Positions 1,681 through 22,401 are shown, counted from the first letter of the stretch. The stretch: 46,879 bases of DNA from Rhodothermales bacterium (GCA_040904565.1 JBBDTI010000025.1:1-46879); one strand, 5' to 3'. Notes: generated by a model not told the origin, from the letters alone. Made by a program: numbers and translations.

Positions 1681-1691
1681 GAGTGGTCTCG

Positions 1692-2611: not shown

Positions 2612-2623
2612 GAGTCAATCGGG

Positions 2624-3784: not shown

Positions 3785-3788
3785 CGAA

Positions 3789-4382: not shown

Positions 4383-4414
4383 GGGGTTTCGAAAGCTGTA
4401 TGTGTGGAAAGGTA

Positions 4415-5953: not shown

Positions 5954-6000
5954 GTGTGATGTCTCTTTTTCGTCGTCAGAAGGTCGGGCGGGATACGATG

Positions 6001-6723
6001 CTAGAATTTGCCCAGCTCACGCGTTACGTGACCGAGTATCTGGTCGTGTGTGCTGAGTACCTTTTGCTGCGATTCGAATTGCCTGAAATGCGCGATCATC
6101 TCGGTCATCTCTCTGATCGGATCGACGTTGCTCGTCTCGATGAACCCCTGTCGCACGGACGGTTGTTCGACTTCTAGTGGCTCGGCGCCGTCCGCCGTGA
6201 AGGCCGCTCCATCGACGCGGGTGAGCGCCATCGGATTCTCGAACCGTACGAGCCGAAGCGTTCCGACCGGCTGGTCGTCAGCCCGGATCGTGCCGTCGGC
6301 CTGGATCGCGATCGTGGCAGCGTCGCGCGGAATTTGTATCGGGCCGTTCAAGCCTTCGACGAGCTGGCCGCCCGGACTCCGAAGCATCCCCTGATCGTCC
6401 TGCGTGAAGCGCCCGGCACGCGTATAGCGCTCGGGGCCGCCCTCCTGATCGGTCAATACGAAGAACCCATCGTTCTCGATGGCGACGTCGAGCGGACCTC
6501 CAGTGGCTTCGAACGCTCCCTGCTCGAGGGACGCCCACTGCTCGGTACGTCGGTCGCTCTGCGGTCCACCTTCTACGTCGAGATATTCTTCGAGCGTAGC
6601 CGTGAACGTCCGATCTTGCTTGTAGCCGATCGTGTTCGCATTGGCGAGATTGTTGGCCGTCCGCTCCTGCTCTCGGATCATCGAGGTCATGGAGCGAAAC
6701 GCGTTTTGAAGCCGTAGCAGCAT
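6001..6723 (-). CDS. flgF: Flagellar basal-body rod protein FlgF
   Basis: ANNLANANTIGYK, DVAIENDGFF, YTRAGRF and ETSNVDPIREM motifs. Start at MLLRLQ (6723); first gene of the operon. Confidence 0.9.
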   Translation of the reverse strand: MLLRLQNAFRSMTSMIREQERTANNLANANTIGYKQDRTFTATLEEYLDVEGGPQSDRRTEQWASLEQGAFEATGGPLDVAIENDGFFVLTDQEGGPERYTRAGRFTQDDQGMLRSPGGQLVEGLNGPIQIPRDAATIAIQADGTIRADDQPVGTLRLVRFENPMALTRVDGAAFTADGAEPLEVEQPSVRQGFIETSNVDPIREMTEMIAHFRQFESQQKVLSTHDQILGHVTRELGKF

Positions 6724-6763
6724 GGGAATCGAATCGAATGGATTGAACTCGAACACCAGCTCG

Positions 6764-6780
6764 AACAAACGGCACGCCAA
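6764..6780 (-). promoter_or_regulatory. Putative sigma-54 (-24/-12) promoter of the flgF operon
   Basis: Minus strand TTGGCGTG-CCGT-TTGTT (consensus TGGCACG-N4-TTGC), about 40 bp upstream of the flgF ATG. Confidence 0.55.
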
Positions 6781-6982
6781 CTTGGGAACGGTAGGGAGGG
6801 TGTCCAGCGAGGCCGTGCGCGAAGCACGTTCAGGGGCAGGAATTTCCTGGAATTCGCGGCAGATCTTGCCAGCGGGGCGACCCTGGCGTCGCCGTGCGAG
6901 ATCGGCTCGTAACGGGACGCCGTCTATCGGCGGCGACGGGTGGCATCCGAACCAAGTCGACCCGCCGCACGTGTGAGAGGCC

Positions 6983-7855
6983 ATGCAAGTAACGAGCCGA
7001 ACGACGCAACTCTATCACGCGACGCGCGCCGTCCTCATCGGAGGCGGGGTAGGCGTCGTGTCCGAGATCGCGACGAGCGTAGGATGGTATCCTGGCCTGG
7101 CCGTCTTTGTGATCGTGCTCGCGCTGGGTCTTCGCCGTTCCATCCGGCGTGCCCGGGCCGTGCGGCGTCCCCTGACGGGCTCCGTGCGCTCCTGGCTGGT
7201 GGACCGATTTCCCTCCTACGACTGGGTCGATGCGGATCGGTTTGAACGCGATCTCAAGATCGTACTGGACGAGTGGATTTTCGAAGGCGTTGGAGGGGTG
7301 GAGGTGACGGACGAGGCGAAGGCAGGTGTTGCGGCAGGCGCGGCGCTGCTGCTGAACGGACGGCCGAACTGGGAGCTCCCATATCGGCAGACCGTGCTCT
7401 TCTATCCCGATCGGTTCGATAACGACTATCTTTCCGGAGACTCGGGCGAATTCGACGGCATGGCGCACCAGCAGGGTCCGGTCATCCTGTCGTCGGTGGC
7501 CGTGGATGAAAGCTGGGCGTATCCGGAGGATGGAAGCAACGTCGTCCTCCACGAACTGGCCCACCTGCTCGATTATGAGAATGCTTTCGCGGACGGCGTG
7601 CCGTCTCTCGTGGATCCTGGTTCGGAAGTAGCGTGGCGAGAACTCGTGAAGAAGGAGATACGGCGCGTGCGCATCGGACGATCAATGCTCCGGCGATACG
7701 CCGCGACGAATCCTGCCGAGCTGTTCGCCGTGTCCGTCGAGAATTTCTTCGAGCGGCCTGAGGCGATGGCGACCGGGCATCCCGAGCTGTTTGGCGCGCT
7801 GAAGAGCCTCTTCAATCTGGATCCCGCCGGCACGTCCCAACCCAATTCAGAATGA
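6983..7855 (+). CDS. Zinc-dependent peptidase, MtfA/M90 family, with N-terminal hydrophobic segments
   Basis: DGSNVVLHELAHLLD (HEXXH) and YAATNPAELFAVSVENFFERP motifs typical of MtfA. Start uncertain. Confidence 0.85.
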   Translation: MQVTSRTTQLYHATRAVLIGGGVGVVSEIATSVGWYPGLAVFVIVLALGLRRSIRRARAVRRPLTGSVRSWLVDRFPSYDWVDADRFERDLKIVLDEWIFEGVGGVEVTDEAKAGVAAGAALLLNGRPNWELPYRQTVLFYPDRFDNDYLSGDSGEFDGMAHQQGPVILSSVAVDESWAYPEDGSNVVLHELAHLLDYENAFADGVPSLVDPGSEVAWRELVKKEIRRVRIGRSMLRRYAATNPAELFAVSVENFFERPEAMATGHPELFGALKSLFNLDPAGTSQPNSE

Positions 7856-7924
7856 CGCGCGGCGTGAAGCAGGGCAGCCTTCTCAAGCCGTCGATTGTGC
7901 CTCGTTGACCCGCGTTCACAGCGA

Positions 7925-7939
7925 TGGCACAGTACTTGA
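7925..7939 (+). promoter_or_regulatory. Putative sigma-54 promoter of the TPR gene
   Basis: TGGCACA-GTAC-TTGA, ending 48 bp upstream of ATG 7988. Confidence 0.55.
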
Positions 7940-7987
7940 ACGTGTTGGTGGCGAAGTCAAACCTCCAACTCACGCAACGCAAACGCC

Positions 7988-8485
7988 ATGCAATCGTACG
8001 ATCGACTTATCGAACAGGCCGAAGAGCGGCTCCGCGGGCAGGACACCGTGCAGGCCATGCAGCTCTACGCCGAAGCCGCCAAGGCCGCGCCGGAGCGCAA
8101 AGAACCGCTGATCGAGCTCGCGCTGCTCTTCATTGCTCACGACGATGTGGACGGAGCCATCGGGTTTCTCGAGAAGGCGCTGTCCCTCGACGGTACCGAT
8201 CCCTTCATCCGGCTCAATCTGGCACTTGCGTGCTACGAGATGAACCGGAGTGAGGAGGCCGCGGATCACTTGACGAAGGCCGTGCTCCTCATTCAGTATC
8301 TCGTCAGCGAGACGCGGATCAACAACATGTTCGGTTCTGCATCCGAGATGGATCTGAAACAGGCCGAAGAGATGGAGACGACGGGCGAGTACGCCATCGA
8401 GCTACTCAAGGAAATGGCCGGTATCACCGAGCCGGACGCGCAGCCCGTCGAGATCCGGAGACCGACGTTCCGTCTGGCCTCATAG
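7988..8485 (+). CDS. Standalone tetratricopeptide repeat protein
   Basis: TPR pattern (AIGFLEKALSLDGTDPFIRLNLALACY); colinear with 16355..16846. Confidence 0.8.
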   Translation: MQSYDRLIEQAEERLRGQDTVQAMQLYAEAAKAAPERKEPLIELALLFIAHDDVDGAIGFLEKALSLDGTDPFIRLNLALACYEMNRSEEAADHLTKAVLLIQYLVSETRINNMFGSASEMDLKQAEEMETTGEYAIELLKEMAGITEPDAQPVEIRRPTFRLAS

Positions 8486-8487
8486 GG

Positions 8488-8516
8488 TGGTTGACAGGCA
8501 GCATGGTTGACAGGCA
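8488..8516. repeat. 13-bp direct repeat TGGTTGACAGGCA, 16-bp period
   Basis: Exact copies at 8488-8500 and 8504-8516 in the intergenic region. Confidence 0.8.
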
Positions 8517-8712
8517 AGGTCTTCCGAATGTGGTAGACCTGCGTGTCGCCGTTCACGTCGTGGAGCGTTCTTCTCCGTCGGATTTCCGATGGTGAGGAAG
8601 AATCTCGGTGTCGCTGCGGGACCGACGGGCAGCCGCCGGGAAGAGCATGAAATTCGGGCATTGAGGATAGCAGCAAGATTAAGATAAGAAGTACGATTGC
8701 GTCTTTTCTACC

Positions 8713-9972
8713 ATGAGCGATAGTCCACACGTACGCCGGATCAAGAAAGGAGAAGACCTTTTCCTGGCCGGCGATCACGCCGCTGCCCTGGACGTTTTCG
8801 AGGCCGTACTTGATGAGGTGCCCGATCATGTCGGTGCGCTCAACGATGCAGCCCTCGCTGCGGCCGAGACGGGCGACGTGGTCAAAGCGGTGCGCTACTT
8901 TGAGCGCGTTCTGGAGCTCGACTCGAGTCAGGAAAACGCGTTCTATAATTTCATCGACCTTCTTGTTCAGGAAGATGCGGCCGATCTCGCCCGGGACGTC
9001 GTTCGGACATACCGATCGGACATACCGGCATCCAGCGAGCTCACGAAGTACGAATCTGCGCTCGGGGTGCTGCCTGATGGCGCGGCGCGCGGAACGGCGG
9101 TGACGGACGTATCCGTGAAGAGCAACCTCGAACCGTCGGGTGACAGGCGCCACGTTATCATCGTAGCGCAGCCGCGAAGCGGCACGACGATTCTGTGGAA
9201 AACGCTCCGTCAGGACCGGCGCCTGGTATGCTTCGACGAGCCGTTTCGACCGCATTTGCGACGATACGTGCTCCAGGAAAGCGACGATAAGAAACAGACG
9301 ATGGGAGAGTATCTCGCCCGCCCCGATCTGATAGAGTCACACTGGAGCACGCTCCAGCCGTTCGAGGAGTTCGATCCGAATCTTGTGGGGCACCAGCGCA
9401 CCTACCTTCAAACGCTTGCTGCGCAGGGTGAGCACGTATGTATGGACTTCGTACGGTGCAGCGCTCATATCGCCGCGCTTCGCCGAGCCGTCCCCGACGC
9501 CTTAATCGTGCATCTGGTCCGTGATCCCCGGGCGTGGGTGACCAGCCATCTCAGACCGTACGGGCGCTGGATGCCCGGGCTGCCCCAAGCTTTTTTCACG
9601 CACGAGGGGAGTTTTGATTTCTGGAGGCGGCAGCAGGCCGCTCAAGTTTTGGGCGCGAAGGGATATGCCCACGAGCAGCTCCTGCAGGTCTGGGATCGTC
9701 TGGTGGCGCTGGCCGAGACGGCTCGCCCGGATCTGACGATCCGCTTCGAGCATTTCGCACTACAACCCGATGACGTGTTGCAGGTGATCTACGAAAGGAT
9801 GAACCTCGACTACCCGTCTCTGGACACCTCGATCGTTCGTAAGCCGAATCCGCCGTTTGCGTTCGATGATGCCCGCTGGGAGCCGGCACTGGCACGATGC
9901 CTCAGTCCGGCTAACCACACGTTTCTGTTCGACTACGAGTCCTGTACGCCGGCGGGGTCGGTCGCAGCGTAG
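8713..9972 (+). CDS. TPR-domain sulfotransferase
   Basis: N-terminal TPR pair; PAPS 5'-binding loop QPRSGTTIL; 3'-phosphate-binding motif HLVRDPRAWVTS; IRFE motif. Confidence 0.85.
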   Translation: MSDSPHVRRIKKGEDLFLAGDHAAALDVFEAVLDEVPDHVGALNDAALAAAETGDVVKAVRYFERVLELDSSQENAFYNFIDLLVQEDAADLARDVVRTYRSDIPASSELTKYESALGVLPDGAARGTAVTDVSVKSNLEPSGDRRHVIIVAQPRSGTTILWKTLRQDRRLVCFDEPFRPHLRRYVLQESDDKKQTMGEYLARPDLIESHWSTLQPFEEFDPNLVGHQRTYLQTLAAQGEHVCMDFVRCSAHIAALRRAVPDALIVHLVRDPRAWVTSHLRPYGRWMPGLPQAFFTHEGSFDFWRRQQAAQVLGAKGYAHEQLLQVWDRLVALAETARPDLTIRFEHFALQPDDVLQVIYERMNLDYPSLDTSIVRKPNPPFAFDDARWEPALARCLSPANHTFLFDYESCTPAGSVAA

Positions 9973-9991
9973 CGGCGTTTAAGCCCCCATC

Positions 9992-10011
9992 CTCGCGGCG
10001 ATCGTCGCGAG
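9992..10011. terminator. Hairpin between convergent genes (possible terminator)
   Basis: CTCGCGGC-GATC-GTCGCGAG stem with one G-U pair, between stops at 9972 and 10022. No U-tract. Confidence 0.35.
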
Positions 10012-10021
10012 CCCACATCCT

Positions 10022-13000
10022 TCAGGCGGCATCGCGCCGCCGGCTCGCAAATCGATCCGCGATCGATTCCGCGGATGCACTAGCCGGTGAAGCCATGCTG
10101 CCGGACATACTTGTTATAGCGAGCTGTGACGCCGGCCGCGACGTCACCACGTTCTCCACGAGTGCATCGATTCGTTCGAGCTGTGTGGCGGCCGTCAGGT
10201 CGTTATCGGTCAGAAGGGACCGATAACGGTGCGGTTCATAGGGAGAATCGTCCAGCATACGGTCGAGAAATTCGTTGAGATTCCTGAAGATGAACTCCTC
10301 CGGCCAGATCTCGCGGCTCTCGCGCCACGCATGGATCACGGGCTTCAGCCCTGCAGCCATTCCGTTTCCGACCGCATAGTGGAAGGATTCTTCGAGCGAA
10401 AAGCTGAGAATATGTGATTTGTCAACGAGCCATGCATCCAGGTCGTCGATCCATTCCTCGACGATCGTGATGTGGGAATGGAGATCCAGCTCATCCATCA
10501 TCGTCTCGACGGCCATTTTGTAGCGTAAGTCCTGCCAGTCGCCCCGAATGAACAGCCGGTATGCCGGGTCCTCGCGCCGCAGTGCGTCGAAAAACTGCAG
10601 AAGCATCGGGAGGCCCTTTCGGTGATTGATGTGACCGAGAAGCAGGAGATTCTTGGTATTCGACTTGTCGGGAGGAATCGCGAATCGATCCACGGTCACG
10701 CCGTTTCGAATGACGACCTGATCGACATCCGCTGCCGGAACGAGACGGTTGAACAGGTCGCGCTTGTGCTCGGCGACGAAGACGAGTCGGTCGACGACGG
10801 ACCAGTTGATATCACGGATATACGGCGTAAACACTTCGAAGCCGTGCAGTCGGCAGATGACGGATCTCGACGAGAGGGCGTCGATCTCGTGGGTCACCTT
10901 CGCCGTAAGTGGACTCGCCCACTCCAGCCAGACGACGTCCGCTTCGTCTATGGCGCGGCGGGCCGTGGTCAGGTCCGTCGTCTTGAGATACGTGGCGCTG
11001 CACTTCGACCGCCAGTGCTCGACCACGTGATCGAGATGTCCGCCGGTGCTGATGCCGTCCTGCTCGAGAAACAGAATCCTGCTCGGCGTGCTGTGGTCGG
11101 GCGTGCTGTGGGCGGGCGTGATGCGAGACCCGGCCTCGTCGCGCTCCGGAGGTCGACTCGAACTCTGTGGGCGCTCGTAGCCGAAGAACCGGATCTGATC
11201 GCGGCATTCCCGCTCCAGTATGGCGTGTTGCTCGTCGGACCAATCTGAAGGCAGGGGGAATTCTCCCTGTTTCTGAGCATTCAATTTCTTGTTCAGGATG
11301 TCCGCGGCGGCGTCGCGATCGAATCCGTCGAGGCCGAGAACGTCGAACAGGTGCCGGGTTACGTCGGGATCCTCTACGAGGTCCTCGAAGCGGACGATGA
11401 CGTAGCGGTCGTCGGGGAGCCGGTCGATCTCTTCACGAATGCGACGATACGTCTCGTTCCACAGCCAGCACACCTTTTCGAACGGCGTGCGATCCGTCCA
11501 CCCTGCGGCTTCGGCGTGATCCGGCTCGGGGCGCAGTCGCCCGGCGTCCCACGCGTGCCCGCGGTAATACCCGCGCCGCATTCCGGAACGCACGAAGTCC
11601 CACGGATTTCGTACGAGGACGATGAATCGGGCTTCGGCGATATCCTGCCGTATGACGGAGGCGAAGGCGGTCATGTTATGATCCAGCTCGCCGAATACAA
11701 GGCTGTCCTTCCAGGCATCACGCAGGACGTGCCCGCGAGCATTCCAGAAGGTCTTTCGGGCGTCGATATCTTCGTGATAGGCGGCGAGTGTTTCTTCGAC
11801 GAGGTACGGACGAGGGTGGTGGTATACTCTGGCGTTCGCGGCGGTGCCGAGGAGCGCGGACAGCGTCTGGGTGCCGCAGCGCCCGGATGACAGGCAGAAA
11901 AAGGCCTCCCCGGTCGTATCTGAAAGATGGTACCGTCCATAACCGTTCGGCTTCTCCACATCCCGCCAGCGATCGAGATGCTGTGCTACCGAGGCGGCAA
12001 TCCGTTCGTCCAGGCCGGTTGCCAGGGGGGCCGGCAGGTCGTAGACGGCTGCAGACCCCTCCGCTTCATACCCTCCCTCTTCGATCATTGCCGACGTGGG
12101 TAGATAGGCTTTGAGACCGTTCGAATATCCCAGGATGGCCGACCAGTCCGGAAGGTCGGTGTGCCGGGACACGTATCGGGCGAGCTCCCCGACGACTTCA
12201 CCGGGGCACGTGATGAAACACGTGCCCTCGCCTAACGCGAGAAATTGAACCTCGATCGATAAATCCCTCGCCCGCTCGTCCTCCGGGATGGCGGCCTGCC
12301 GGCCCGCCCACTGCCTGTTCACCAGCGGAACGTCATCACTCTTTGCCATTGCCTCGAGCACCTCCGTTGACGGAGGCGGCTGGAAGTCGAGCCGGATCGT
12401 ATCGGTCCGGGCGAAGATGGGACCGTTTACGGACCGAATGCTTCGTCTGAGGGCGTCCGTAACGGCTCGTCCGAGACATCTTGCGTTCAGGTCGACGCCT
12501 TCCGGCGATGTGGTGAATGACGTTTCTCCGTTTTTTACACGGGTCTGCTTTGCGCTTCCGCCGGCGGCCTGCAAGAACATGACTGTATGTGCCACGTCCG
12601 CCTCGACAAGATGAGCCCGCAGGGAGCCGGGAAAATCCGCGGATATAACCTCCCGGTTTCCCAGCCCGGTTGGATGGCAGCCGTGGGCGACCACGGCGGT
12701 GGTCGATCCGTCGTGAAGATGATCGACGACGAGGATCGGCGTGTCTTCAGCATAGAATCCTTCATCGTTGATGCCGAACTGGATCCGGCCGTCCACTTCG
12801 ACGCGGCGATTGGAACCTATCCTCGCATCCGTGCCGGTTGCATAGATAAAGCACGGGCGGAGCCGCTCGAAGAGCTGCGGCAGCAGCTCGCGTATCGTAG
12901 CGGTGACCTTGTTGGTATACGATGCGTCGAAAGCACCGATGGCCGGCGTGACGTGCCGGCACGTGCCGGGGGCGTAATGGGTGTGCGATGCGTTCAGGAG

Positions 13001-13666
13001 AAGGGCCTCCGGAGGAATGCCCCATTCGCGCGCTGTGCGGCGAACGTGCGCGACCGTTGTGTCGTCGAAGCCGAAGAGATCCGCGCTTACGATAAGGCAC
13101 CGGGAGCCGCACTCGTCTTCGAGTAGAAGGAGCTGAAGGAGAAGGGGCGAATGAACGGCTCGAGCGGTTCGGGGCGGTCCTGTAAATCCCTGCAGGACGG
13201 GTCCATCTTCACCCGGCTGGGGCGTAATATTGACGGAGACCTGTGCGGCCCGGTAGGGGGTGGAAGCCTGCGTCAACCCGCCCAGTACGGCGGCACACCG
13301 CCGATCGTCGGGCGACACCCCGCCGGCGCGCGGTGAGTCGTCGCGCAGTGATTCGGCATGCGATGATTCGTCGCGCAGTGATTCGGCATACGCCTTCACG
13401 TAGTCGTGGATGGCAGGTTCTTTAACCAGCTCCGAGAGATTCTCGATAATGCCCTTGTTGGAAGGATCTAGACGCAGCGCGTGCAGATGAGCGTCGACGC
13501 CTTTCTGTATGTCCCCGGAGTGGAGTGCGGCGATACCGACGTTCGTCAGGACGGAGACGTCTCGTGGATGCTCGGCCAGCAGATCCTCGAAGAGCGTAAG
13601 CGCTTCATCAGGCCTGTCATCCCGGAGCAATTGTTCTCCACGTTGAAGGTGTTCGTGAACGTCCAT
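10022..13666 (-). CDS. Multidomain protein: TPR + neutral/alkaline ceramidase-like amidase + sulfotransferase + GT4 glycosyltransferase (1214 aa)
   Basis: TPR N-terminus; ceramidase-family motifs NASHTHYAPG, GCHPT, ISADFPG, PGE, GYSNG..YLPT..EGGYE; sulfotransferase motifs SGRCGTQTL and LVRNPWDFVRS; GT-B motifs RLHGFE, KG and SLEESFHYAVGNGMAAG. Start placed at MDVHE. Confidence 0.85.
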   Translation of the reverse strand: MDVHEHLQRGEQLLRDDRPDEALTLFEDLLAEHPRDVSVLTNVGIAALHSGDIQKGVDAHLHALRLDPSNKGIIENLSELVKEPAIHDYVKAYAESLRDESSHAESLRDDSPRAGGVSPDDRRCAAVLGGLTQASTPYRAAQVSVNITPQPGEDGPVLQGFTGPPRTARAVHSPLLLQLLLLEDECGSRCLIVSADLFGFDDTTVAHVRRTAREWGIPPEALLLNASHTHYAPGTCRHVTPAIGAFDASYTNKVTATIRELLPQLFERLRPCFIYATGTDARIGSNRRVEVDGRIQFGINDEGFYAEDTPILVVDHLHDGSTTAVVAHGCHPTGLGNREVISADFPGSLRAHLVEADVAHTVMFLQAAGGSAKQTRVKNGETSFTTSPEGVDLNARCLGRAVTDALRRSIRSVNGPIFARTDTIRLDFQPPPSTEVLEAMAKSDDVPLVNRQWAGRQAAIPEDERARDLSIEVQFLALGEGTCFITCPGEVVGELARYVSRHTDLPDWSAILGYSNGLKAYLPTSAMIEEGGYEAEGSAAVYDLPAPLATGLDERIAASVAQHLDRWRDVEKPNGYGRYHLSDTTGEAFFCLSSGRCGTQTLSALLGTAANARVYHHPRPYLVEETLAAYHEDIDARKTFWNARGHVLRDAWKDSLVFGELDHNMTAFASVIRQDIAEARFIVLVRNPWDFVRSGMRRGYYRGHAWDAGRLRPEPDHAEAAGWTDRTPFEKVCWLWNETYRRIREEIDRLPDDRYVIVRFEDLVEDPDVTRHLFDVLGLDGFDRDAAADILNKKLNAQKQGEFPLPSDWSDEQHAILERECRDQIRFFGYERPQSSSRPPERDEAGSRITPAHSTPDHSTPSRILFLEQDGISTGGHLDHVVEHWRSKCSATYLKTTDLTTARRAIDEADVVWLEWASPLTAKVTHEIDALSSRSVICRLHGFEVFTPYIRDINWSVVDRLVFVAEHKRDLFNRLVPAADVDQVVIRNGVTVDRFAIPPDKSNTKNLLLLGHINHRKGLPMLLQFFDALRREDPAYRLFIRGDWQDLRYKMAVETMMDELDLHSHITIVEEWIDDLDAWLVDKSHILSFSLEESFHYAVGNGMAAGLKPVIHAWRESREIWPEEFIFRNLNEFLDRMLDDSPYEPHRYRSLLTDNDLTAATQLERIDALVENVVTSRPASQLAITSMSGSMASPASASAESIADRFASRRRDAA
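13338..13389. repeat. 22-bp direct repeat (30-bp period) in a linker of the fusion gene
   Basis: TCGTCGCGCAGTGATTCGGCAT at 13338-13359 and 13368-13389; encodes AESLRD twice. Confidence 0.85.
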
Positions 13667-14003
13667 CGTCGATGCGATTGTAATTGGGAAGGCCTGGTGT
13701 GTCGTGTGACGGCACAAAAAACATTCCCTGGTGCGAGGTCGGGCCGCGCACGGTGCATCTCGCCATCGGGACGTGCCATCCGACGATCCGTCGAGCAGAG
13801 CTATCTGCGCTCGGCGAGCGTCGCCGCGCCAGGGAAAGGATGGGATCGCCGGATTGGGGCGCGACGACATCGCACGCGAACCGTCGCGCGCGTGGCGTGA
13901 GGCAAGAAAGTATTTCCGGGATGATGCAAGGACTGCCTATGGGACGAAGCCGTCAGCCCGCGTATCAGGCGGGTTCTTGAGAGAAGTTACCTCGGCCTTG
14001 TGT

Positions 14004-14019
14004 TGGTAGGCTATTTGCA
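14004..14019 (+). promoter_or_regulatory. Putative sigma-54 promoter of the sugar-modification operon
   Basis: TGGTAGG-CTAT-TTGCA with exact GG-N10-GC spacing, about 100 bp upstream of ATG 14118. Confidence 0.6.
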
Positions 14020-14117
14020 CCGTCGGCAAGAGAACGCGATCCGTGCCCGGAACCGCCTCGCGAGGCGTACCGCTCGATCGCACCATACGTTCGAGAGTGA
14101 CACCAAAGAGCCTACCC

Positions 14118-15089
14118 ATGGCTGATATTAAAGGAAGCCGCGTGCTCGTTATCGGAGGCGCCGGCTTTATCGGATCTCATATCGTCGATCGATTGCTACG
14201 TGAAGATGTGGGAGAGGTCGTCGTCTTCGACAATTTCTGCAGGGGTTCCAGAGAAAATCTCGCTCAAGCGCTGACGGACGACCGGGTTCGAATTTTTGAA
14301 GCGGGCGGCGACATCACCCGGCCCGACATCCTGCGAGCGGCGGCGGAGGGATGTGACTACGCCTTTCACCTCGCCGCGCTGTGGCTGCTTCAATGCCACG
14401 AATATCCGCGCGCGGCCTTCACCGTCAACGTCGAGGGGACGTTCAACGTCCTCGAGGCGTGCCGCGATGCCGGCATTAAGAAGCTCGTCTATTCTTCGTC
14501 CGCCTCCGTGTATGGGGATGCGCTCGAAACGCCCATGACTGAGGATCACCCGTACAACAATCGCACGTTTTACGGTGCGACCAAGATTGCCGGCGAACAT
14601 ATGTGCCGGGCGTTTAACGAACGATACGGGCTCGATTACGTCGGCCTTCGCTACATGAACGTGTACGGGCCGCGGCAGGATTATAAGGGGGCGTATGTGT
14701 CCGTCATTATGAAAATCCTGGATCGTATCGACGCCGGACTTCCCCCCATCGTCTATGGAGACGGTTCGCAGGCGTACGATTTTATCTATGTGGAGGAAGT
14801 GGCCCGCGCCAATCTGCTCGCCTTGCAGTCCGACGCGACGGACGAATGCTTTAACGTAGGGTGCGGCCGGAGCACGTCCATCAAGGCGCTCTGCGAGCTT
14901 CTCCTGGAGCTGACGGGCAGCACGCTGCCGATCCAGTACGAGCCGGCCGGACAAACCTTCGTGACGCGGCGCGTGGGGTCGACCGAAAAGGCGGAGAGGC
15001 TGCTGGACTTCAATTCAGAGGTAGAACTCGCTGACGGACTGCAGCGCCTCATTCGATGGCGGCGCGCCGATATAGCCCTCGCCGCCTGA
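14118..15089 (+). CDS. NAD-dependent NDP-sugar epimerase/dehydratase (extended SDR)
   Basis: GGAGFIGSH, SSSASVYG, YGATK and RYMNVYGPRQ motifs. Confidence 0.95.
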   Translation: MADIKGSRVLVIGGAGFIGSHIVDRLLREDVGEVVVFDNFCRGSRENLAQALTDDRVRIFEAGGDITRPDILRAAAEGCDYAFHLAALWLLQCHEYPRAAFTVNVEGTFNVLEACRDAGIKKLVYSSSASVYGDALETPMTEDHPYNNRTFYGATKIAGEHMCRAFNERYGLDYVGLRYMNVYGPRQDYKGAYVSVIMKILDRIDAGLPPIVYGDGSQAYDFIYVEEVARANLLALQSDATDECFNVGCGRSTSIKALCELLLELTGSTLPIQYEPAGQTFVTRRVGSTEKAERLLDFNSEVELADGLQRLIRWRRADIALAA

Positions 15090-15112
15090 ATCCAACCAAT
15101 CCACTTCTGACG

Positions 15113-16300
15113 ATGCAAAATATACCCATTACCAGAGTGCTTTTCGACGAGGCGGAAATAGAGGCCGTCCAGGAGCCCCTGCGCAGCGGCTGGATCGTGC
15201 AGGGGCCGTACGTGGCCGAGTTCGAACGTAAGTTCGCCGACTTCGCGGGGTCGAAGCACGCCATCGCAACTACATCTTGCACGACGGCGCTACATCTATC
15301 GCTGGCCGCGGCGGGAATCGGACCGGGCGACGAAGTGATCGTACCCGCGTTCACGTGGGTGGCGACGGCGAACGTCGTCGAGTACATGGGTGCGAAGCCG
15401 GTCTTTTGCGACATCGACCTCGAGACGTTCAATGTGGACGTCGACCTGCTGCCGGACCTGATTACGGATCGGACGCGGGCGATCATACCCGTGCACCTCT
15501 TCGGACTTCCGGCCGACATGTACGCGATACGGCGTCTGGCCAGGTGGCACGACCTCGTCGTCGTAGAAGACGCCGCCTGTGGATTTGGAGCCACGTATGA
15601 AGGCACCCACGTCGGCACGCTCAGTCATTTCGGCTGCTTCAGCTTCCATCCTCGAAAAGCGATCACGACGGGCGAAGGCGGGATGATTCTCACACAGCGC
15701 GACGACGCGGCCGAGCTGTGCCGGACGCTGCGGGATCACGGAGCCAGCAAAACCGACCTGTCGCGACACGCAGGAAGCGGCGGATTCCTGCTACCCGCCT
15801 ACGATCACCTCGGCTACAATTATCGCATGACGGACCTTCAGGGCGCGATAGGGTCCATGCAGATGGATAAGGCCGGCGAAATCCAATCCGCCCGCGTTCA
15901 CCGGGCCGAACGATACGACGACCTGCTCGAGTCCACGTCGTGGCTTCGGACGCCGACCGTTCCCGAAGGCAGCACGCACGCCTACCAGTCGTATGTCTGC
16001 CTTTTCCGACCCGAGCCGGTGTCCACGAAGAACGTCGACCGGCTGCATCAGCGCCGGAACGCGCTGATGGCCGAACTCGAATCGCGCGGCATCGCAACGC
16101 GGCAGGGGACCCACGCCGTCACGTCCCAGGGCTACTATCGACGGAAGTACGGCATCCATCCTGAAGCGTATCCCCAGGCTCTCCTCGCGGAGCGCCTCTC
16201 GCTGACGCTTCCGGTGTATCCGCAGATGACCGACGAAGAACAAGACTACGTGGTGGCCCAGCTTCACCAGGTGTTCGAGTCGTACCGGCGCGCGGCCTGA
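15113..16300 (+). CDS. DegT/DnrJ/EryC1/StrS family PLP-dependent sugar aminotransferase
   Basis: SCTTALHL, PVHLFG, VEDAAC, FSFHPRKAITTGEGG and GYNYRMTD motifs. Confidence 0.96.
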   Translation: MQNIPITRVLFDEAEIEAVQEPLRSGWIVQGPYVAEFERKFADFAGSKHAIATTSCTTALHLSLAAAGIGPGDEVIVPAFTWVATANVVEYMGAKPVFCDIDLETFNVDVDLLPDLITDRTRAIIPVHLFGLPADMYAIRRLARWHDLVVVEDAACGFGATYEGTHVGTLSHFGCFSFHPRKAITTGEGGMILTQRDDAAELCRTLRDHGASKTDLSRHAGSGGFLLPAYDHLGYNYRMTDLQGAIGSMQMDKAGEIQSARVHRAERYDDLLESTSWLRTPTVPEGSTHAYQSYVCLFRPEPVSTKNVDRLHQRRNALMAELESRGIATRQGTHAVTSQGYYRRKYGIHPEAYPQALLAERLSLTLPVYPQMTDEEQDYVVAQLHQVFESYRRAA

Positions 16301-16354
16301 CGGCAAGGACCCACTAATACCGTTATTGCAATCCAAGAACAACGAGAGACTATC

Positions 16355-16846
16355 ATGGAGACGTACGAGCAGCTACTGGATCAGGGTGAACGACTCGTGA
16401 GAAGCGGCGACCAGGTGGCCGGCGTTCGCAAATACGCGCGCGCGGCCGAACTCGACCCCAAGCGAAAGGAGGCTTTCACGAAGCTGGGGCTTGTCTATCG
16501 GGAGTACGGGGACGTCGATAGCGCGATGAACTTCTTTGCTCAGGCGGCGAGCCTCGACGAGAAGGACGCCTTCGTTCGATTCAATCTCGGTCTGATCCAG
16601 TACGGGGAAGGGATGCTGGATAGGGCGCGTGAGACGCTCGAGGAAGCCGTATCGATCGTGCAGACGGGCATTGCCGGTGCACGCGTCGAAGCGGAGGGGC
16701 TGCGGTCCGACAAGCAGGGCATCCTGCTCCACCAGTGTGACGAGTTGGAACAGACGGTCGTTGACGCGCAGGCGCTGCTCGCGCAGATCGCCACGGATCA
16801 GGCGGCGACGCCGGAGTCCGGGTTCGCGAGCGGTCAGGCGGGATAG
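16355..16846 (+). CDS. Standalone tetratricopeptide repeat protein
   Basis: TPR repeats (AAELDPKRKEAFTKLGLVY; AASLDEKDAFVRFNLGLIQY); paralog of 7988..8485. Confidence 0.85.
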   Translation: METYEQLLDQGERLVRSGDQVAGVRKYARAAELDPKRKEAFTKLGLVYREYGDVDSAMNFFAQAASLDEKDAFVRFNLGLIQYGEGMLDRARETLEEAVSIVQTGIAGARVEAEGLRSDKQGILLHQCDELEQTVVDAQALLAQIATDQAATPESGFASGQAG

Positions 16847-16886
16847 CCTGCACGGCTGAGGGTTAGCATAACCACGGGAGAACGCC

Positions 16887-18842
16887 ATGTGCGGTATAGC
16901 AGGCATTATGAACGCGGACGGCCGGCCGATTTCCGGTCCCTTGCTGCGGCGAATGACGAACGCGCTTCGCCATCGGGGACCGGATGGGGAAGGGTACGTC
17001 GTCAGCGGTCGAATCGGACTCGGACATCGACGACTGGCCGTCCTCGATCCCTCGCCGGCGGGTCATCAGCCGATGCAGACGGAAGACGGTCGCTTCGTGA
17101 TCAGCTATAACGGCGAAGTGTATAATTTCCAGAATCTGCGCCTGACGCTGGAGTCGCTCGGCCACGTGTTTCGCTCGAAGACGGACACGGAAGTGGTCCT
17201 ACGGGCATTCCGGGAGTGGGGGCCGGACTGCGTCAAGCGGTTCAACGGCATGTTCGCATTCGCCGTGTGGGATGCCGTGGAACGGCGGCTCGTGCTCGCG
17301 CGGGATCGGTATGGGATCAAGCCGCTCTATTATACCCACTCAGACGGTTCGTTTCTCTTCGGCTCGGAGATCAAGGCGATCCTGGCCCATCCGTCCGTCT
17401 CCGTACGGGTATGCATCGAGGCAATGAACGAGTATTTCTCGTTCCAGAACGTGTTTTCCGACCGGACCCTCTTCGAAGGAATCAGGATGCTTCCCGCGGG
17501 AACGATCATGCTCGTCAGTGCGGACGGAACGGTTCGCAGCGAGCGGTACTGGGATTTCGATTTCAGAGACTCCGATACGTTAACCGAGTCGGAATGCATC
17601 GAAGGATTTCAGTATTACTTCGAGCAGGCCGTCAACCGCCAGCTGGTCGCCGATACGGAGGTGGGCTCATTCCTCAGCGGCGGGATCGACTCCGGATCCA
17701 TCACGTCGGTCGCGTCCAAGAGCTTTGACTTTTTGAAGACCTTCACCTGCGGCTTCGATCTTCGATCCGCCTCAGGGCTCGAGTTGAACTTCGACGAGCG
17801 AGAGCGGGCCGAACATCTATCCTACCTGAACGGCACCGAGCATTACGAGGTCGTGTTGAAAGCCGGCGACATGGAGCGCGTCATGCCGGACCTCATCCGC
17901 CACATGGAGGACCTCCGCGTCGGACAGAGCTATCCCAACTATTACGTCAATCGCCTGGCCGGCAAATTCGTAAAGGTCGCGCTTTCGGGCACCGGAGGAG
18001 ACGAACTCTTCGCCGGATATCCGTGGCGCTACTATCGCGCCGTCGTGAATGCCGATGCCGACCATTACATGGACAAGTACTATCGCTACTGGCAGCGACT
18101 CATCCCGGACCGCATCAAGCCGGACTTTTACCAGCCGGACATCTACCCGGAAGTGTGGAATCACCAGACGAAGGACGTATTCAACCAGGTTATGAACGGC
18201 CGGGCAGAGAATCTGGCGACGCCGGAAGAATACGTCAATCGGTCCCTCTATTTCGAGGCCAAAACCTTCCTGCACGGACTCCTGGTCGTCGAAGACCGGC
18301 TCAGCATGGCGCACGGGCTCGAGGTCCGCGTGCCGTTTCTGGACAACGATCTCGTGGACTTTGCGATGAAGGTGCCCGTCCGGTACAAGCTGCGCGATCT
18401 GCGTGACGTCGTTCGGCTCAATGAAAATGAGCCGGGGCGGAAAACCCAGCAATATTTTTCCCGCACGAACGACGGCAAGCTCCTCCTGAGAAAGGCTCTG
18501 GAACGGTACGTGCCGGCCGAATACGCGCACGGCTGCAAGCAAGGATTCTCGGCGCCGGACGGCAGCTGGCTCAAAGGGGAGAGCATCGATTACGTACGAG
18601 ACCTCCTGTTTGACGACCGGGCTCGCATCTACGATTACATCCAGCCCGAGACGGCGCAGGGGCTCATGCGGGAACACTTTGAAGGTCGCACGAACCGCCG
18701 GCTTCTCATCTGGTCCCTGCTCTGCTTCGAATGGTGGTGCAAGACGTTCATGGAGGACCGGCATGCGCCCGAAAAGGGCCTTCGATCCAACGGCCGCCGT
18801 CAAGAGACTGTCCCCATTCAGACATTGTCCGCAGCAGCATGA
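16887..18842 (+). CDS. asnB: Asparagine synthase (glutamine-hydrolysing)-family amidotransferase, probably acting on a sugar
   Basis: MCGIAG N-terminus, HRGPD, GHRRL, YNGEVYN, LSGGIDS, SGTGGDELFAGY and EVRVPFLD motifs. Confidence 0.95.
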   Translation: MCGIAGIMNADGRPISGPLLRRMTNALRHRGPDGEGYVVSGRIGLGHRRLAVLDPSPAGHQPMQTEDGRFVISYNGEVYNFQNLRLTLESLGHVFRSKTDTEVVLRAFREWGPDCVKRFNGMFAFAVWDAVERRLVLARDRYGIKPLYYTHSDGSFLFGSEIKAILAHPSVSVRVCIEAMNEYFSFQNVFSDRTLFEGIRMLPAGTIMLVSADGTVRSERYWDFDFRDSDTLTESECIEGFQYYFEQAVNRQLVADTEVGSFLSGGIDSGSITSVASKSFDFLKTFTCGFDLRSASGLELNFDERERAEHLSYLNGTEHYEVVLKAGDMERVMPDLIRHMEDLRVGQSYPNYYVNRLAGKFVKVALSGTGGDELFAGYPWRYYRAVVNADADHYMDKYYRYWQRLIPDRIKPDFYQPDIYPEVWNHQTKDVFNQVMNGRAENLATPEEYVNRSLYFEAKTFLHGLLVVEDRLSMAHGLEVRVPFLDNDLVDFAMKVPVRYKLRDLRDVVRLNENEPGRKTQQYFSRTNDGKLLLRKALERYVPAEYAHGCKQGFSAPDGSWLKGESIDYVRDLLFDDRARIYDYIQPETAQGLMREHFEGRTNRRLLIWSLLCFEWWCKTFMEDRHAPEKGLRSNGRRQETVPIQTLSAAA

Positions 18843-19534
18843 ATGACGTTGACGTACAGGCGGTCGTAGACCGGAGACTTGAAGGGCTCGAACGATACGG
18901 GCGGTCTGCCGCCGCACTGGGCGACGGCAAGGGCGGTCGACAGGACGTGCGCTTCGCCGTCTACGCGGAGTACATCCTGGACCATGACGATGCGTCCGTG
19001 CTGGATCTGGGGTGCGGATTTGCCGATCTGTTCGAATATCTACGGCGCCGGGGATGGCGCGGCAGATATAGGGGCGTCGAGATCGTGCCGGAATACGTCG
19101 AGCAGATACGGCGGATCCATCCGGAATTGGAGGTCCTGCAGGGCGACGTCGAGACGATGCTGGAAGACCTGCCGACCCACGATTTCGTCGTTGCGGCGAG
19201 CATCATGAATCTCCGGCTGAAGGCCGGCGAGAATGAAGCCTATATCCGACGCATGATGCGCCGCATGTTCGACCGGGCCGACGTAGCGGCGGGGATGGAC
19301 TTCATGACCACGTATGTGGACTGGCAACATCCGGATGCGTGGCACACGGACCCGGCATGGGCGGTCACCGAAGCGAGTCGCCTGACACGGCGCGTCGTGC
19401 TCCGCGCCGATTTTATGCCCTATGAGTTCGTGCTCATTCTCTTCAAGGATGATCGAGCGTCAGTCCGCAACGTCTACCGGGCGTTCGAGGCACGTTTAGA
19501 CGCGTCGGAGGTCGGAGGCGGGGATGATGCGTGA
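18839..19534 (+). CDS. Class I SAM-dependent methyltransferase
   Basis: SVLDLGCGFAD motif I and YRGVEI motif; ATG overlaps the asnB stop (ATGA). Confidence 0.88.
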   Translation: MNDVDVQAVVDRRLEGLERYGRSAAALGDGKGGRQDVRFAVYAEYILDHDDASVLDLGCGFADLFEYLRRRGWRGRYRGVEIVPEYVEQIRRIHPELEVLQGDVETMLEDLPTHDFVVAASIMNLRLKAGENEAYIRRMMRRMFDRADVAAGMDFMTTYVDWQHPDAWHTDPAWAVTEASRLTRRVVLRADFMPYEFVLILFKDDRASVRNVYRAFEARLDASEVGGGDDA

Positions 19535-20810
19535 CGGGTACCTCGCCGTACTGGGCGGCAACAAGATGGCCTGCCACGGTATCGAACGACTCGAAGCCCT
19601 GGGCTATCGCCTGCTCGTGCTAGACGGCAATCCACAGGCCGCCGCCCGTACGCCCGGACGTCCCTTCCTGGCCGTCGATTTCTCCGACACAAACGCAGCG
19701 CTCCGCGCGCTGGAGCCGTTCGAGCTGGGTGGCATCATGCCGTTGAACGATTTCGCGGTTCGCTCGTCGTCCCGCATCGCAAGAGAGCGTGGACTCCGGG
19801 GATGGACCGAGGAGACGGCGTACCGGTTGACCAATAAGGCGGCCATGCGAGCGGTCTGGCGTGAGGCGAACCTGCCACAGCCGTCCTACTGTTCCGTGTC
19901 CATCGAAGACCTGCTCGCCGGTCAGCATCCCGTATGGGATTCATTCCCATGCATCGTCAAGCCCGCCTTCGCGGGAGGCGCCAGCCGGGGCGTCCACCTC
20001 GTGCACGACTGGGATGAGGCACGCGCCGTCGTCGAAGCCACGCGCGACGTCTACCTGGATGCCGACGTCGTCATCGAAGAATACGTACGCGGCACCGAGC
20101 ATACCCTTGAAGTCGTCGTAAGGGATGGCCGGCCGACGCTCCTCTCCATCTCCGACAAACAGAATTACCCGGGTCACGTCAGCGTCGTCCAGAACCTCTA
20201 CTTTCCCGGCCCGGTCGGGTGGGCCGCGCACGATCGATTATGCGACCTTGTTTTTGCCGCCTGCGGCGCTCTGGGGGTGACCGACGGAGCCTGCCATTTC
20301 GAAGTGCTGCTTACCGAGCACGGCCCGCTCCTTCTAGAGGTGGGCGGACGGCCGGGCGGTGGACTCAACTTCGATCCGATCTGCCGGCTTTCGACGGGCT
20401 TCGACTATCCGAGCCTGCTCGCCTGCATTCTAACCGGAGAATCTCCCCGGTTCGTCCGTCAAGAGCCGTGTCACCTGGCCTGGCACTACTTCGACGGCGG
20501 GGACGGAACGGTCCAGGACATCATAGGAATGGACGAGGTCGATGGGGCCGATGGCGTCGTGGATGTCGAATGCTACGAGCGCGTGGGAGAGCCGCGCCGC
20601 CGCCTCACCGACGACCTTGAACGCCCCGGCTACGTGCTCGTCCGCGCCGACAGCCATGGCGCCGCCCGAACGCTCGCCGCACGGATGTGCGACCGTATAG
20701 AAGTTTTGACCCACGCGCCGACATCGAAGTCGCTCCATACCGAACACCTAGCTACCGCATCACATGAAGATACTGGTTGGTACACACGAGATATGCCGGC
20801 AGGCGTATGA
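19524..20810 (+). CDS. ATP-grasp domain ligase
   Basis: NKAAMR, IVKP..GGASRGV, VIEEYVRG.E, HFEV and LLEVGGRPGG motifs. Confidence 0.88.
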   Translation: MMRDGYLAVLGGNKMACHGIERLEALGYRLLVLDGNPQAAARTPGRPFLAVDFSDTNAALRALEPFELGGIMPLNDFAVRSSSRIARERGLRGWTEETAYRLTNKAAMRAVWREANLPQPSYCSVSIEDLLAGQHPVWDSFPCIVKPAFAGGASRGVHLVHDWDEARAVVEATRDVYLDADVVIEEYVRGTEHTLEVVVRDGRPTLLSISDKQNYPGHVSVVQNLYFPGPVGWAAHDRLCDLVFAACGALGVTDGACHFEVLLTEHGPLLLEVGGRPGGGLNFDPICRLSTGFDYPSLLACILTGESPRFVRQEPCHLAWHYFDGGDGTVQDIIGMDEVDGADGVVDVECYERVGEPRRRLTDDLERPGYVLVRADSHGAARTLAARMCDRIEVLTHAPTSKSLHTEHLATASHEDTGWYTRDMPAGV

Positions 20811-22401
20811 CCTGGCCGCGGCGTTTCGTACCCTCGGCCACGAGGCTGAAACCGTTATGGTGGCCCGAAATCCACAGCACCCTGAACTCGTCTACGACCA
20901 CGTGTACGATCAGGGTGCTCTCTGGCAGCACTACGTACGATTGACGAAGCAGCCGATCGAGTCCTGGCTCCACCCGGAGCCCGATCTCGTTCGGCTGCGC
21001 GACATGCTGACCGGCTACGACGCCTACGTATTCCAGTTCTCGCACAGCCTGCTGCCGTTCAATCAGGATTTTCCCATCCTGCGCCGGCTGGGCAAGAAAA
21101 TCCTATCACTCTTCAATGGAAGCGATATTCGCCACTGGTCGGCCGCAAAGCCTATCGCGGATAAATACGGGTATCACGTACCGGATCTTCTCTGGCAGCC
21201 GCCGTACAACGATCTCAATTCACGCATGCACAACCTACGCATGGCGGAGCGGTATGCGGACGCCCTGTTTGGAGCACCGGGGTGTTCCCAGCTGGCCGTT
21301 CGACCGTACTGGCAGTTTCCGATTCCGGTAGACCTGTCGCGGCTCGTCGAGAACGTGCCCCGGCGCGACGTCCCGGTCGTCGTGCACGCCCCATCCCGTC
21401 GCGGTTATAAGGGGACGACCGAGATCCTGGAGGTACTCGAGCGACTGGAAAGGGAAGGCATTCGATTCGATCTTCGGTTGCTAGAAGACGTACCTAACCG
21501 GGAGGTCCTCCGAGAGCTCACGCAGGCAGACGTCGTTCTGGATCAGCTCAATGCTCCGAATTATGCGATGCTCGCCCTGGAAGGGATGGCCACGGGCTGC
21601 GTCGTCGCCGGAGGTAGGAATCCGAACTACATGCCGTTCTACAGTAGTGCTCCCGTCTACGAAATCACGCGGGAGGGCCTCTACGAACAGCTCAAACGAC
21701 TCCTTACATCCAAAGACCTGCGTACGGAATTCGCCGTACAGGGACGTTCCTACGTGGAGCGCACGCACGGTCGCATCGCCGTCGCCGAATATCTCCTGTC
21801 GCGTCTCGAGACGTCTGACGAACCGGACTACTTTCCGACCTTCGTGGCGCGGCGATATCATGTGCCGGAGGAGTGCCAGGTGTCCGATCGCGTCAGGAAG
21901 TTGACGGCCGAGGTGGTGCAGCGGCACGGACTGCCTCACGGTGTAACGGCACAGGACATGGCGCGGCGCGGACTGCTAAATCCGGATGTGCTCGACGCGT
22001 CGCGCCCGATCACGTCCTGGCAGCCCCTCCACGAAGATCAAGCGGAGGAGATCTGGGGATGGAGCCGCTTACTGCGAAGTGTCGATCGTCCGGGGACTCC
22101 GTGCGTGGCCGGCACGATCCTTCACCACGTTTCCCGCGCGATCCGTGCCGTCGAGGAAAAGGACTTCGACACGGCTTCCGGGCTGCTTCAAGAATGCATC
22201 ACGCTGTTGACGGAGCACGACGCCGTCACTATGGACGCTGCCGTGCTGAAGGCGATCGGGCGTTTAGCGCGCGAACTCAACGAGCCGGCGCTTGCCGCCG
22301 GACTGTGGCGGCAGGCGGCCGCACTCGACCCGGACTCGGATCAGGAGCTGGCTCCCGCTATCGCCGAATTGGATGCTCCTACGTCCGTGCAGGCAGCGTA
22401 G
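20764..22401 (+). CDS. GT-B glycosyltransferase with C-terminal TPR-like helices
   Basis: [27 protein letters not shown] and ALEGMATG motifs; C-terminal [14 protein letters not shown]-like segment. Confidence 0.82.

Follow-up and report, generated by a model that had tools for sequence, protein, structure and literature searches.

The window analysed here is the whole of contig C25 (JBBDTI010000025.1; 46,879 nucleotides) of the Rhodothermales bacterium genome GCA_040904565.1, hereafter G000. It contains a ten-gene island (7988–22401), lying beyond a block of flagellar genes and an M90 peptidase gene, in which six of the ten encoded proteins end in Ala-Ala. A second contig of the same genome, C2, carries an operon of six surface-glycan genes with the same ending throughout. 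This clustering of Ala-Ala ends is real and far beyond chance. Their most economical explanation would be mimicry of the ssrA tag, that is, a degron written into the genes themselves, and we give an even chance to the prediction that the Ala-Ala tails are ssrA-mimicking C-terminal degrons.

Clustering of Ala-Ala ends in the genome

The G000 assembly comprises 4.02 Mb in 95 contigs with a guanine-plus-cytosine (GC) content of 61.5%, is 94.9% complete and contains 94 gaps of 100 N. Genes were called with a dicodon log-odds caller trained on G000 itself; the C-terminus of an open reading frame (ORF) is independent of the choice of start codon. In the window the caller found 44 genes, and the methyltransferase gene of the island, which it missed, was added from direct ORF reading. 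Genome-wide, 72 of 3154 genes (2.3%) encode an Ala-Ala end, with 72 of 2886 at a caller score of at least 30 and 62 of 2510 at a score of at least 60 (about 2.5%). Ala-Ala is the commonest terminal dipeptide, at about 1.7 times the 1.3% expected from the frequency of Ala at the last two positions, where Ala is the commonest residue.

Against this background, the probability of finding at least six such ends among the ten island genes is 4.6 × 10−8, and none of the 38 other called genes of the window has one. When the labels were shuffled 2000 times, the maximum number of Ala-Ala ends in any ten-gene window was two in 724 shuffles, three in 1176, four in 99, five in one and six in none, while ten-gene windows with six are observed in two places, the island and contig C2. 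None of the next 14 commonest C-terminal dipeptides exceeds three per ten-gene window. Several statements of the preliminary description of this DNA can be kept as they stood: the six island C-termini read exactly as given there (Table 1), the rest of the window is free of Ala-Ala ends, and the carriers belong to unrelated families according to Pfam, except for the domains shared by the two sulfotransferase/TPR proteins. The tabulation of the whole proteome that it proposed finds such ends to be rare. Its suggestion that overlap with the next gene constrains the ends lacking Ala-Ala is weak, since the epimerase gene overlaps its neighbour by 34 nt and is still Ala-Ala-ended.

On contig C2 (13.6 kb, 65% GC), the six consecutive genes at 4277–11963 (minus strand) end in VKAA, EQAA, AMAA, SRAA, PRAA and VKAA, and their Pfam assignments are a methyltransferase, a WecA-type GT4 membrane transferase, a GT4/GT1 glycosyltransferase, a carbamoyltransferase, a GT2 and a GT1 glycosyltransferase; the AMAA end is that of the glycosyltransferase at 6511–7881. 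The genes flanking these six, on the other strand or in other operons, have no Ala-Ala end. Three small ORFs without Pfam match lie beside the operon on the plus strand (1099–1593, 1711–1989 and 3896–4240, encoding 164, 92 and 114 residues), and their C-termini resemble one another (TLLDIFID, TLLDIFID and ALLEVLIE).

A third group is found on contig C16 (5547–11522), where three of five genes are Ala-Ala-ended, all three of them NAD-dependent epimerases; one of the three is an ORF that the caller missed and that was added. In the main flagellar cluster, on contig C26, the carriers are FliS, MotA, the FliA-type sigma factor and a 93-residue membrane protein encoded upstream of FliA. Enrichment by gene set, which the preliminary description proposed to test, is modest for the flagellar gene regions (4 of 44 genes, P = 0.013). 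The remaining Ala-Ala-ended proteins are mostly miscellaneous; they include one more epimerase, a GT1 protein with a QTMAN_N (tRNA-queuosine-mannosyltransferase-like) domain, a GT20 and a GT5, and, among housekeeping proteins, EF-G, Asd, IspH, GltB, SMC, ZapA and CoaBC. The idea that every glycan enzyme is Ala-Ala-ended was rejected: among epimerases, for instance, the ending is found in 4 of 16 (in 5 of 17 once the added ORF is counted), and it is absent altogether from the large clusters on contigs C30, C40 and C49. A separate observation concerns contig C46 (13359–15278, plus strand), which encodes a 639-residue protein in which a methyltransferase is fused to a D-Ala-D-Ala-ligase-like ATP-grasp domain and which ends in VAVAA; it recalls the island, where methyltransferase and ATP-grasp protein have a gene each.

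The signal at the protein level

In the twelve clustered genes of the island and the C2 operon, the two terminal Ala codons vary among GCA, GCC, GCG and GCT, the stop codon is TGA or TAG (TAA occurs too among the 72), and the next gene follows at anything from a 4-nt gap to 73 nt, or overlaps. A shared DNA motif was rejected, as the 30 nt before and 40 nt after the twelve stops have only GCN GCN stop in common. A mobile 3′ cassette was likewise rejected; a BLAST search of the twelve tail regions against the genome returned self-hits and four chance matches of 19–26 nt. Since codons, stops and spacing differ and no DNA motif is shared, the Ala-Ala signal acts on the protein.

These data bear directly on the possibility that the last two codons are selected for translation termination or expression level and not for a function in the finished protein. 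C-terminal residues are described as affecting expression both via termination and via degradation in the text available from PMC7246954, and the C2 operon, with Ala-Ala in six of six genes and orthologs elsewhere without it, would suit a selection specific to operon or host. Selection at the nucleotide level is nevertheless hard to reconcile with the use of all three stops in differing downstream contexts and at differing spacings, with synonymous Ala codons that vary without any conserved nucleotide signal, with the conservation of Ala-Ala on monocistronic-looking and on distant orthologs of FliA, FliS and MotA, and with the addition of whole extensions of 28–30 residues instead of two codons alone. 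We regard this explanation as very unlikely.

Judged from Pfam boundaries and alignments, on which all statements about tail accessibility rest, the tails of the island and C2 proteins run 11–51 residues past the last Pfam match. AsnB continues for about 28 residues beyond the point near its residue 623 (...FEWW..F..) where most of 97 homologs stop, and the C2 carbamoyltransferase exceeds almost all of its 119 nearest homologs in length by about 30 residues. Because these closest homologs are without both tails and Ala-Ala, the AsnB and C2 tails arose after divergence, and in this lineage several genes of a single operon acquired Ala-Ala-ended tails. The nearest C2 orthologs lie in other families of the order. 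Taken together, the tails appear often to be lineage-specific extensions that evolve fast while Ala-Ala is kept.

The same observations argue against a reading in which the ends have no dedicated function and reflect shared history (islands acquired from a donor whose tails were Ala-rich), an Ala- and GC-rich composition, and the choice of a feature after the fact. The GC content of 61.5%, the rank of Ala at the last two positions and the patchy distribution of the islands across the order, which is consistent with horizontal transfer, all speak for such a history, as do the many orthologs without Ala-Ala and an Ala-rich tail persisting on EF-G without being a degron. Composition or descent would still have to account for clusters of six that no shuffle reached and that no other dipeptide forms, for twelve proteins drawn from at least nine different Pfam families, for tails gained within the lineage and for the retention of Ala-Ala while the adjacent residues turn over. 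An origin without function thus seems unlikely, if somewhat less so than selection on termination.

Conservation of the terminal dipeptide

Since the genomes compared are related to one another, the following ortholog counts are a pattern and not independent statistics. The Ala-Ala end of FliA is present in 25 of 30 orthologs (G000 included, 52–94% identity), with K, L, M, R, F, S, Y, T or V in front of it. In family f21, seven of eight FliA proteins end in Ala-Ala; these seven come in addition to the 30, in which the eighth (from G038) is already counted. When representatives of 50%-identity clusters were inspected, the eight closest full-length FliA proteins all ended in Ala-Ala, and so did 12 of 125 more distant ones, so that the feature recurs outside the order. 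Four genomes of genus g51 (G071, G084, G116 and G138; L359–L365) carry two FliA-type genes; the end is MAA in every copy examined, which were both in each of the first three genomes and one of the two in G138.

For FliS, 18 of 19 orthologs are Ala-Ala-ended with the motif [R/K/N/S]-[Q/K/R]-A-A, and for MotA 15 of 17, where the motif L-[S/A]-[K/R/Q]-A-A follows a hypervariable acidic linker. Orthologs of the 93-residue membrane protein end in Ala-Ala in 9 of 18 cases. For comparison, other proteins encoded at these loci retain the final dipeptide in 1/15, 1/28, 0/16, 0/9 and 2/10 orthologs where the tail is variable, and in 27/28 and 14/15 where the entire C-terminal motif is conserved. That Ala-Ala is kept on flagellar proteins across the order thus holds for FliA, FliS and MotA. 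EF-G of G000 (C90, 126–2219, minus strand) ends in GAVAA, and 23 of 30 orthologs have the same two residues (L322–L351); it shows a conserved Ala-rich tail, ..ATGAVAA, across the family and serves as a natural control, terminal Ala-Ala being tolerated on an abundant protein.

For the island enzymes the picture is more patchy. The epimerase-DegT-AsnB cassette is spread over many phyla at 58–73% identity, in metagenome-assembled genomes (L071–L150) labelled Bacteroidota, Gemmatimonadaceae, Ignavibacteria, Calditrichia, Cyanobacteria, Nitrospirota, Proteobacteria and others, a distribution that points to wide horizontal spread. Among 200 genomes of the order, its sole close relative is in G037 (contig C187, the same locus as L082). 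This cassette is 68–73% identical, all three of its genes are Ala-Ala-ended (LRKAA, YRMAA and LPIAA), and its tails differ from those of the island in length and sequence.

The glycosyltransferase with a C-terminal TPR-like region (GT-TPR) has 15 full-length orthologs at 44–49% identity, ten of which end in Ala-Ala, typically as ..K.AA; among shorter or more distant homologs, the ending is seen in 2 of 60. The GT-TPR proteins of families f6, f9 and f16 (six genomes) are Ala-Ala-ended, and in f6 a different epimerase adjoining GT-TPR is so too, in three of three cases. In metagenomes, one full-length GT-TPR match was found, ending in KKAA, with 57 further matches that were more distant or partial; a query with the TPR-sulfotransferase protein found no closer relative of the island there. 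The single full-length ortholog of the fusion protein in the genome collection occurs in G006, of the same family (C78, 16718–21622, minus strand); it has 1634 residues, with about 390 extra C-terminal residues without a Pfam match. Just downstream of it lies a gene for a 655-residue protein with a methyltransferase domain. The expectation that orthologs keep Ala-Ala as the tail diverges is therefore borne out by the G037 cassette (three of three) and by GT-TPR (10 of 15), and it fails for the fusion protein, the C2 orthologs and the GT-TPR proteins of f21.

The tmRNA tag, ClpX and the residues before Ala-Ala

The peptide tag encoded by the transfer-messenger RNA (tmRNA) of G000 is ANDYSYAMAA, and that of family f21 is ANDYSYALAA. 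The resemblance of the Ala-Ala ends to an ssrA tag is thus found with the tag of the host itself, which ends in AMAA. Covariation across families, between the tails and either FliA or the tmRNA tag, was dropped as a test, as it does not discriminate: the GT-TPR proteins of f21 are without Ala-Ala despite the ALAA tag and the Ala-Ala end of FliA in that family.

A clpP gene is present (C57, 4263–4982) on a 5-kb contig. Among 40 relatives, clpX is found in 39, including 18 of 18 from the same family. Solved ClpX structures can be aligned to the whole length of the ClpX of G006, whose GYVG, ITRDV and GGRKHP stretches are identical to those of the ClpX chain 9ndj_F. In the text available from PMC7652416, the terminal Ala-Ala carboxylate is contacted by Y153, V154, T199, V202, R228 and H230; since the three stretches contain these positions, the ClpX of G006 carries the contact residues.

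In Escherichia coli, terminal Ala-Ala is described as critical and not sufficient, with the best tags conforming to [LFYW][LAR]LAA and with Pro, His, Gly and short polar residues disfavoured at the third-last position (position −3), according to the available portion of PMC10862746. At this position, the 72 Ala-Ala-ended proteins of G000 have no Gly, His or Asn (Gly is found in 7% elsewhere), and Lys plus Arg are enriched (19 of 72 versus 320 of 2814, P = 5 × 10−4).

The enrichment of basic residues at position −3 also suits a docking motif, in which the free Ala-Ala carboxyl end would be bound by a partner other than a protease (candidates being a domain of TPR or PDZ type and a scaffold of the flagellum or the membrane) that gathers the carriers into assemblies. 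TPR domains are known to bind free C-termini, as in Hop/EEVD and PEX5/PTS1, and the island is rich in TPRs, with two small TPR proteins and three TPR-bearing enzymes; moreover, the longer motifs on MotA and FliS look more like a binding motif than a bare degron, and EF-G tolerates the ending. What such a partner would be is difficult to see, because no candidate receptor was found, the carriers range widely, from a sigma factor and a chaperone to membrane proteins and soluble enzymes, and neither a TPR nor a PDZ protein was found in the C2 operon or its flanks, for which reason TPR proteins were rejected as a general receptor. In addition, FlmG, a GT-TPR enzyme of Caulobacter, uses its TPR domain to bind flagellin and is not known to bind enzyme tails with it. 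We therefore consider docking improbable, though not to the same degree as an effect on termination.

Gene content of the island and its surroundings

The island and the adjoining genes are listed in Table 1. According to Pfam, the island enzymes belong to unrelated families, the only shared domains being those of the two sulfotransferase/TPR proteins. Sugar-modification and glycosyltransferase genes here adjoin the flagellar block at 262–6984, as in flagellin-glycosylation islands, and a flagellar context is common to the locus of the fusion-protein ortholog in G006. Gene content and position thus fit a predicted flagellin- or flagellum-linked glycan modification island.

Table 1 Features of the window discussed in the text
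Product	Position	Strand	C-terminus	Remarks
Flagellar genes (FlgK-, rod-binding-, FlgI-, FlgH-, FlgA-, FlgG-, FlgF-like)	262–6984	−	none Ala-Ala-ended	
M90 (MtfA-like) metallopeptidase	6983–7855	+		between flgF and the island
Small TPR protein, 165 aa	7988–8485	+	RLAS (no Ala-Ala)	
TPR + sulfotransferase protein, 419 aa	8713–9972	+	GSVAA	about 51 residues past the end of the Sulfotransfer_3 match
Fusion protein, 1282 aa	10022–13870	−	RRDAA	TPR, unassigned middle, sulfotransferase, GT1; low-complexity Ser/Ala tail
NAD-dependent sugar epimerase/dehydratase, 348 aa	14043–15089	+	IALAA	34-nt overlap with next gene
DegT/DnrJ/EryC1-type sugar aminotransferase, 414 aa	15056–16300	+	YRRAA	
Small TPR protein, 163 aa	16355–16846	+	GQAG (no Ala-Ala)	likely paralog of the TPR protein at 7988
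AsnB-type glutamine amidotransferase, 651 aa	16887–18842	+	LSAAA	tail residues ~624–651 (nt ~18756–18839), absent in most homologs
Methyltransferase	18731–19534 (longest ORF)	+	GGDDA (no Ala-Ala)	true start probably ATG at 18843
ATP-grasp L-amino-acid-ligase-like protein	19524–20810	+	MPAGV (no Ala-Ala)	
Glycosyltransferase with C-terminal TPR-like region (GT-TPR), 545 aa	20764–22401	+	SVQAA	

The probable start of the methyltransferase follows directly on the AsnB stop codon (18840–18842). The two small TPR proteins are likely paralogs, as judged from their near-equal length, the TPR families they share and a similarity seen by eye. In G006, a 301-residue ORF (C78, 13767–14672) occupies the flgF-adjacent position that the M90 peptidase gene has in the window, the likeness being one of size and position only. 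Farther along the window, hslU (29936–31369) and the gene for an HslV-type proteasome subunit (32581–33150, minus strand) are split by a 355-residue NYN-domain gene (31429–32496), which is unusual for hslVU; an AAA+ protease is thereby encoded 8–11 kb from the island. A Wzx-like flippase (Polysacc_synt_3) and a GNAT acetyltransferase (27523–29918, minus strand), neither of them Ala-Ala-ended, lie 5–7 kb past the island.

Discussion

The terminal Ala-Ala described above matches the end of the tmRNA tag of the host. If the tails act as degrons, proteins displaying Ala-Ala on an exposed tail would be fed to the AAA+ protease that clears ssrA-tagged proteins, most likely ClpXP, with FtsH as a plausible protease for the membrane proteins. 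The carriers would be FliA, FliS, MotA, the six island enzymes, the six-gene surface-glycan operon and three sugar epimerases, and the programmes to which they belong could be kept short-lived or be erased together. The data show the enrichment, its action at the protein level, a conservation that is partial, the sequence of the tag and the motifs in the ClpX of relatives, whereas the degron role, the choice of protease and any role in timing are inferred.

Several findings weigh against a degron role. Most glycan enzymes of G000 are without Ala-Ala (it is present in 4 of 22 GT1, 1 of 26 GT2 and 1 of 2 DegT proteins), and the cassette homologs in other lineages rarely have it (5/81, 5/103 and 2/97 for the three genes). 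The C2 orthologs, too, are mostly without it (1 of 7 for the carbamoyltransferase, 0 of 3 for the GT2 and 0 of 3 for the other glycosyltransferase), and so are the 119 nearest carbamoyltransferases in the database (62–67% identity), four of which have the ending. In f21, none of four GT-TPR orthologs ends in Ala-Ala although the FliA proteins and the tmRNA tag of that family do, and the fusion ortholog of G006 ends in NEHAS. Only IALAA in the island and AMAA in C2 resemble the E. coli or native tag, the other clustered tails having D, R, K, Q, V or A at position −3; the consensus used for this comparison is that of E. coli and may not be that of the host. Terminal Ala-Ala alone cannot be strongly destabilising, since EF-G carries it. 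A profile search found no clpX in the G000 assembly, the best match to the clpX model being HslU (29936–31369); given the completeness of the assembly and its gaps, the gene is probably just unassembled. Finally, kinship among the genomes compared means that the ortholog counts overstate the support.

These points bear on two broader claims of the preliminary description. Co-ordinate destruction of the whole modification pathway by ClpXP is overstated, as only six of the ten island genes are Ala-Ala-ended; the fusion ortholog of G006 is without the ending, clpX was not found and EF-G has it. A ClpXP timer for a motile stage is partly supported: the conserved Ala-Ala of FliA, FliS and MotA agrees with it, and the clusters on C2 and C16, where no link to flagella can be seen, weaken it. 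Because the apparently non-flagellar C2 glycan operon shows the same feature, a timer specific to motility is too narrow, and we rate it below the general degron reading.

A wider version of the degron reading, which we put forward only tentatively and hold to be clearly less probable than the degron role itself, is that in a lineage of Rhodothermales-like bacteria Ala-Ala serves as an address by which membership of a post-translational regulon is set, placing FliA, FliS, MotA, the flagellum-linked island and whole surface-glycan operons under the one protease that handles the ssrA tag. Motility and the sugar coat might then be erased or reset jointly without transcriptional control, and an operon could join by growing an Ala-Ala-ended tail, as seems to have happened with AsnB and in the C2 operon. 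If this is true, a regulon organised by protein ends and not by promoters would be new, and the tails of some 30 residues, which the nearest homologs of the enzymes bearing them do not have, would show how fast degrons are gained. Should the degron reading be wrong, an unusually strong constraint on the last two residues of unrelated proteins would still be there to be explained.

The C-terminal Ala-Ala type of degron is already known, on single regulators. A full-text literature search, covering the main texts of a limited collection, found no description of Ala-Ala across whole enzyme operons together with a flagellar regulator, a chaperone and a stator and kept throughout an order. The closest parallel is the ssrA tag itself, with the natural ssrA-like ClpX signals that make up the 'C-motif 1' class of E. 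coli ClpXP substrates: the free C-terminal Ala-Ala, the AMAA of the G000 tag and the ClpX loop motifs of a relative all match, whereas the upstream residues mostly differ from YALAA or [LFYW][LAR]LAA, and the signal is encoded on the enzymes of whole operons instead of being added to stalled chains or found on single regulators. In Caulobacter, CtrA and other cell-cycle substrates of ClpXP need a terminal Ala-Ala for their turnover, which is tied to the switch between motile and sessile states; the ending is shared, while the timing there comes from adaptors and localisation. LpxC and WaaA, which are degraded by FtsH through a non-polar C-terminal tail, are likewise envelope-glycan enzymes controlled via a tail that is read by an AAA+ protease, as is proposed here; they differ in that each is one enzyme acting at a committed step, the tail motif is longer and the feature does not extend over an operon.

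Two further parallels concern sigma factors. FliA is a target of Lon proteolysis in Vibrio cholerae and E. coli (PMC6598108), and in both settings a flagellar sigma factor would be under regulated proteolysis; the protease is a different one, and the excerpt of that source describes no terminal Ala-Ala signal. SigmaAntA, an orphan extracytoplasmic function sigma factor of Streptomyces, has Ala-Ala in 67 of 71 orthologs; ClpXP degrades it, and a change of Ala-Ala to Asp-Asp stabilises it, as stated in the excerpted text of PMC7142297. It belongs to another sigma family (sigma-28/FliA here) and to another phylum, and biosynthetic enzymes are Ala-Ala-ended as well in G000. It is nonetheless a sigma factor with a comparably conserved ending (25 of 30 for FliA here), and it links a biosynthetic or developmental programme to proteolysis, much as the Ala-Ala tails of the present genome are proposed to do.

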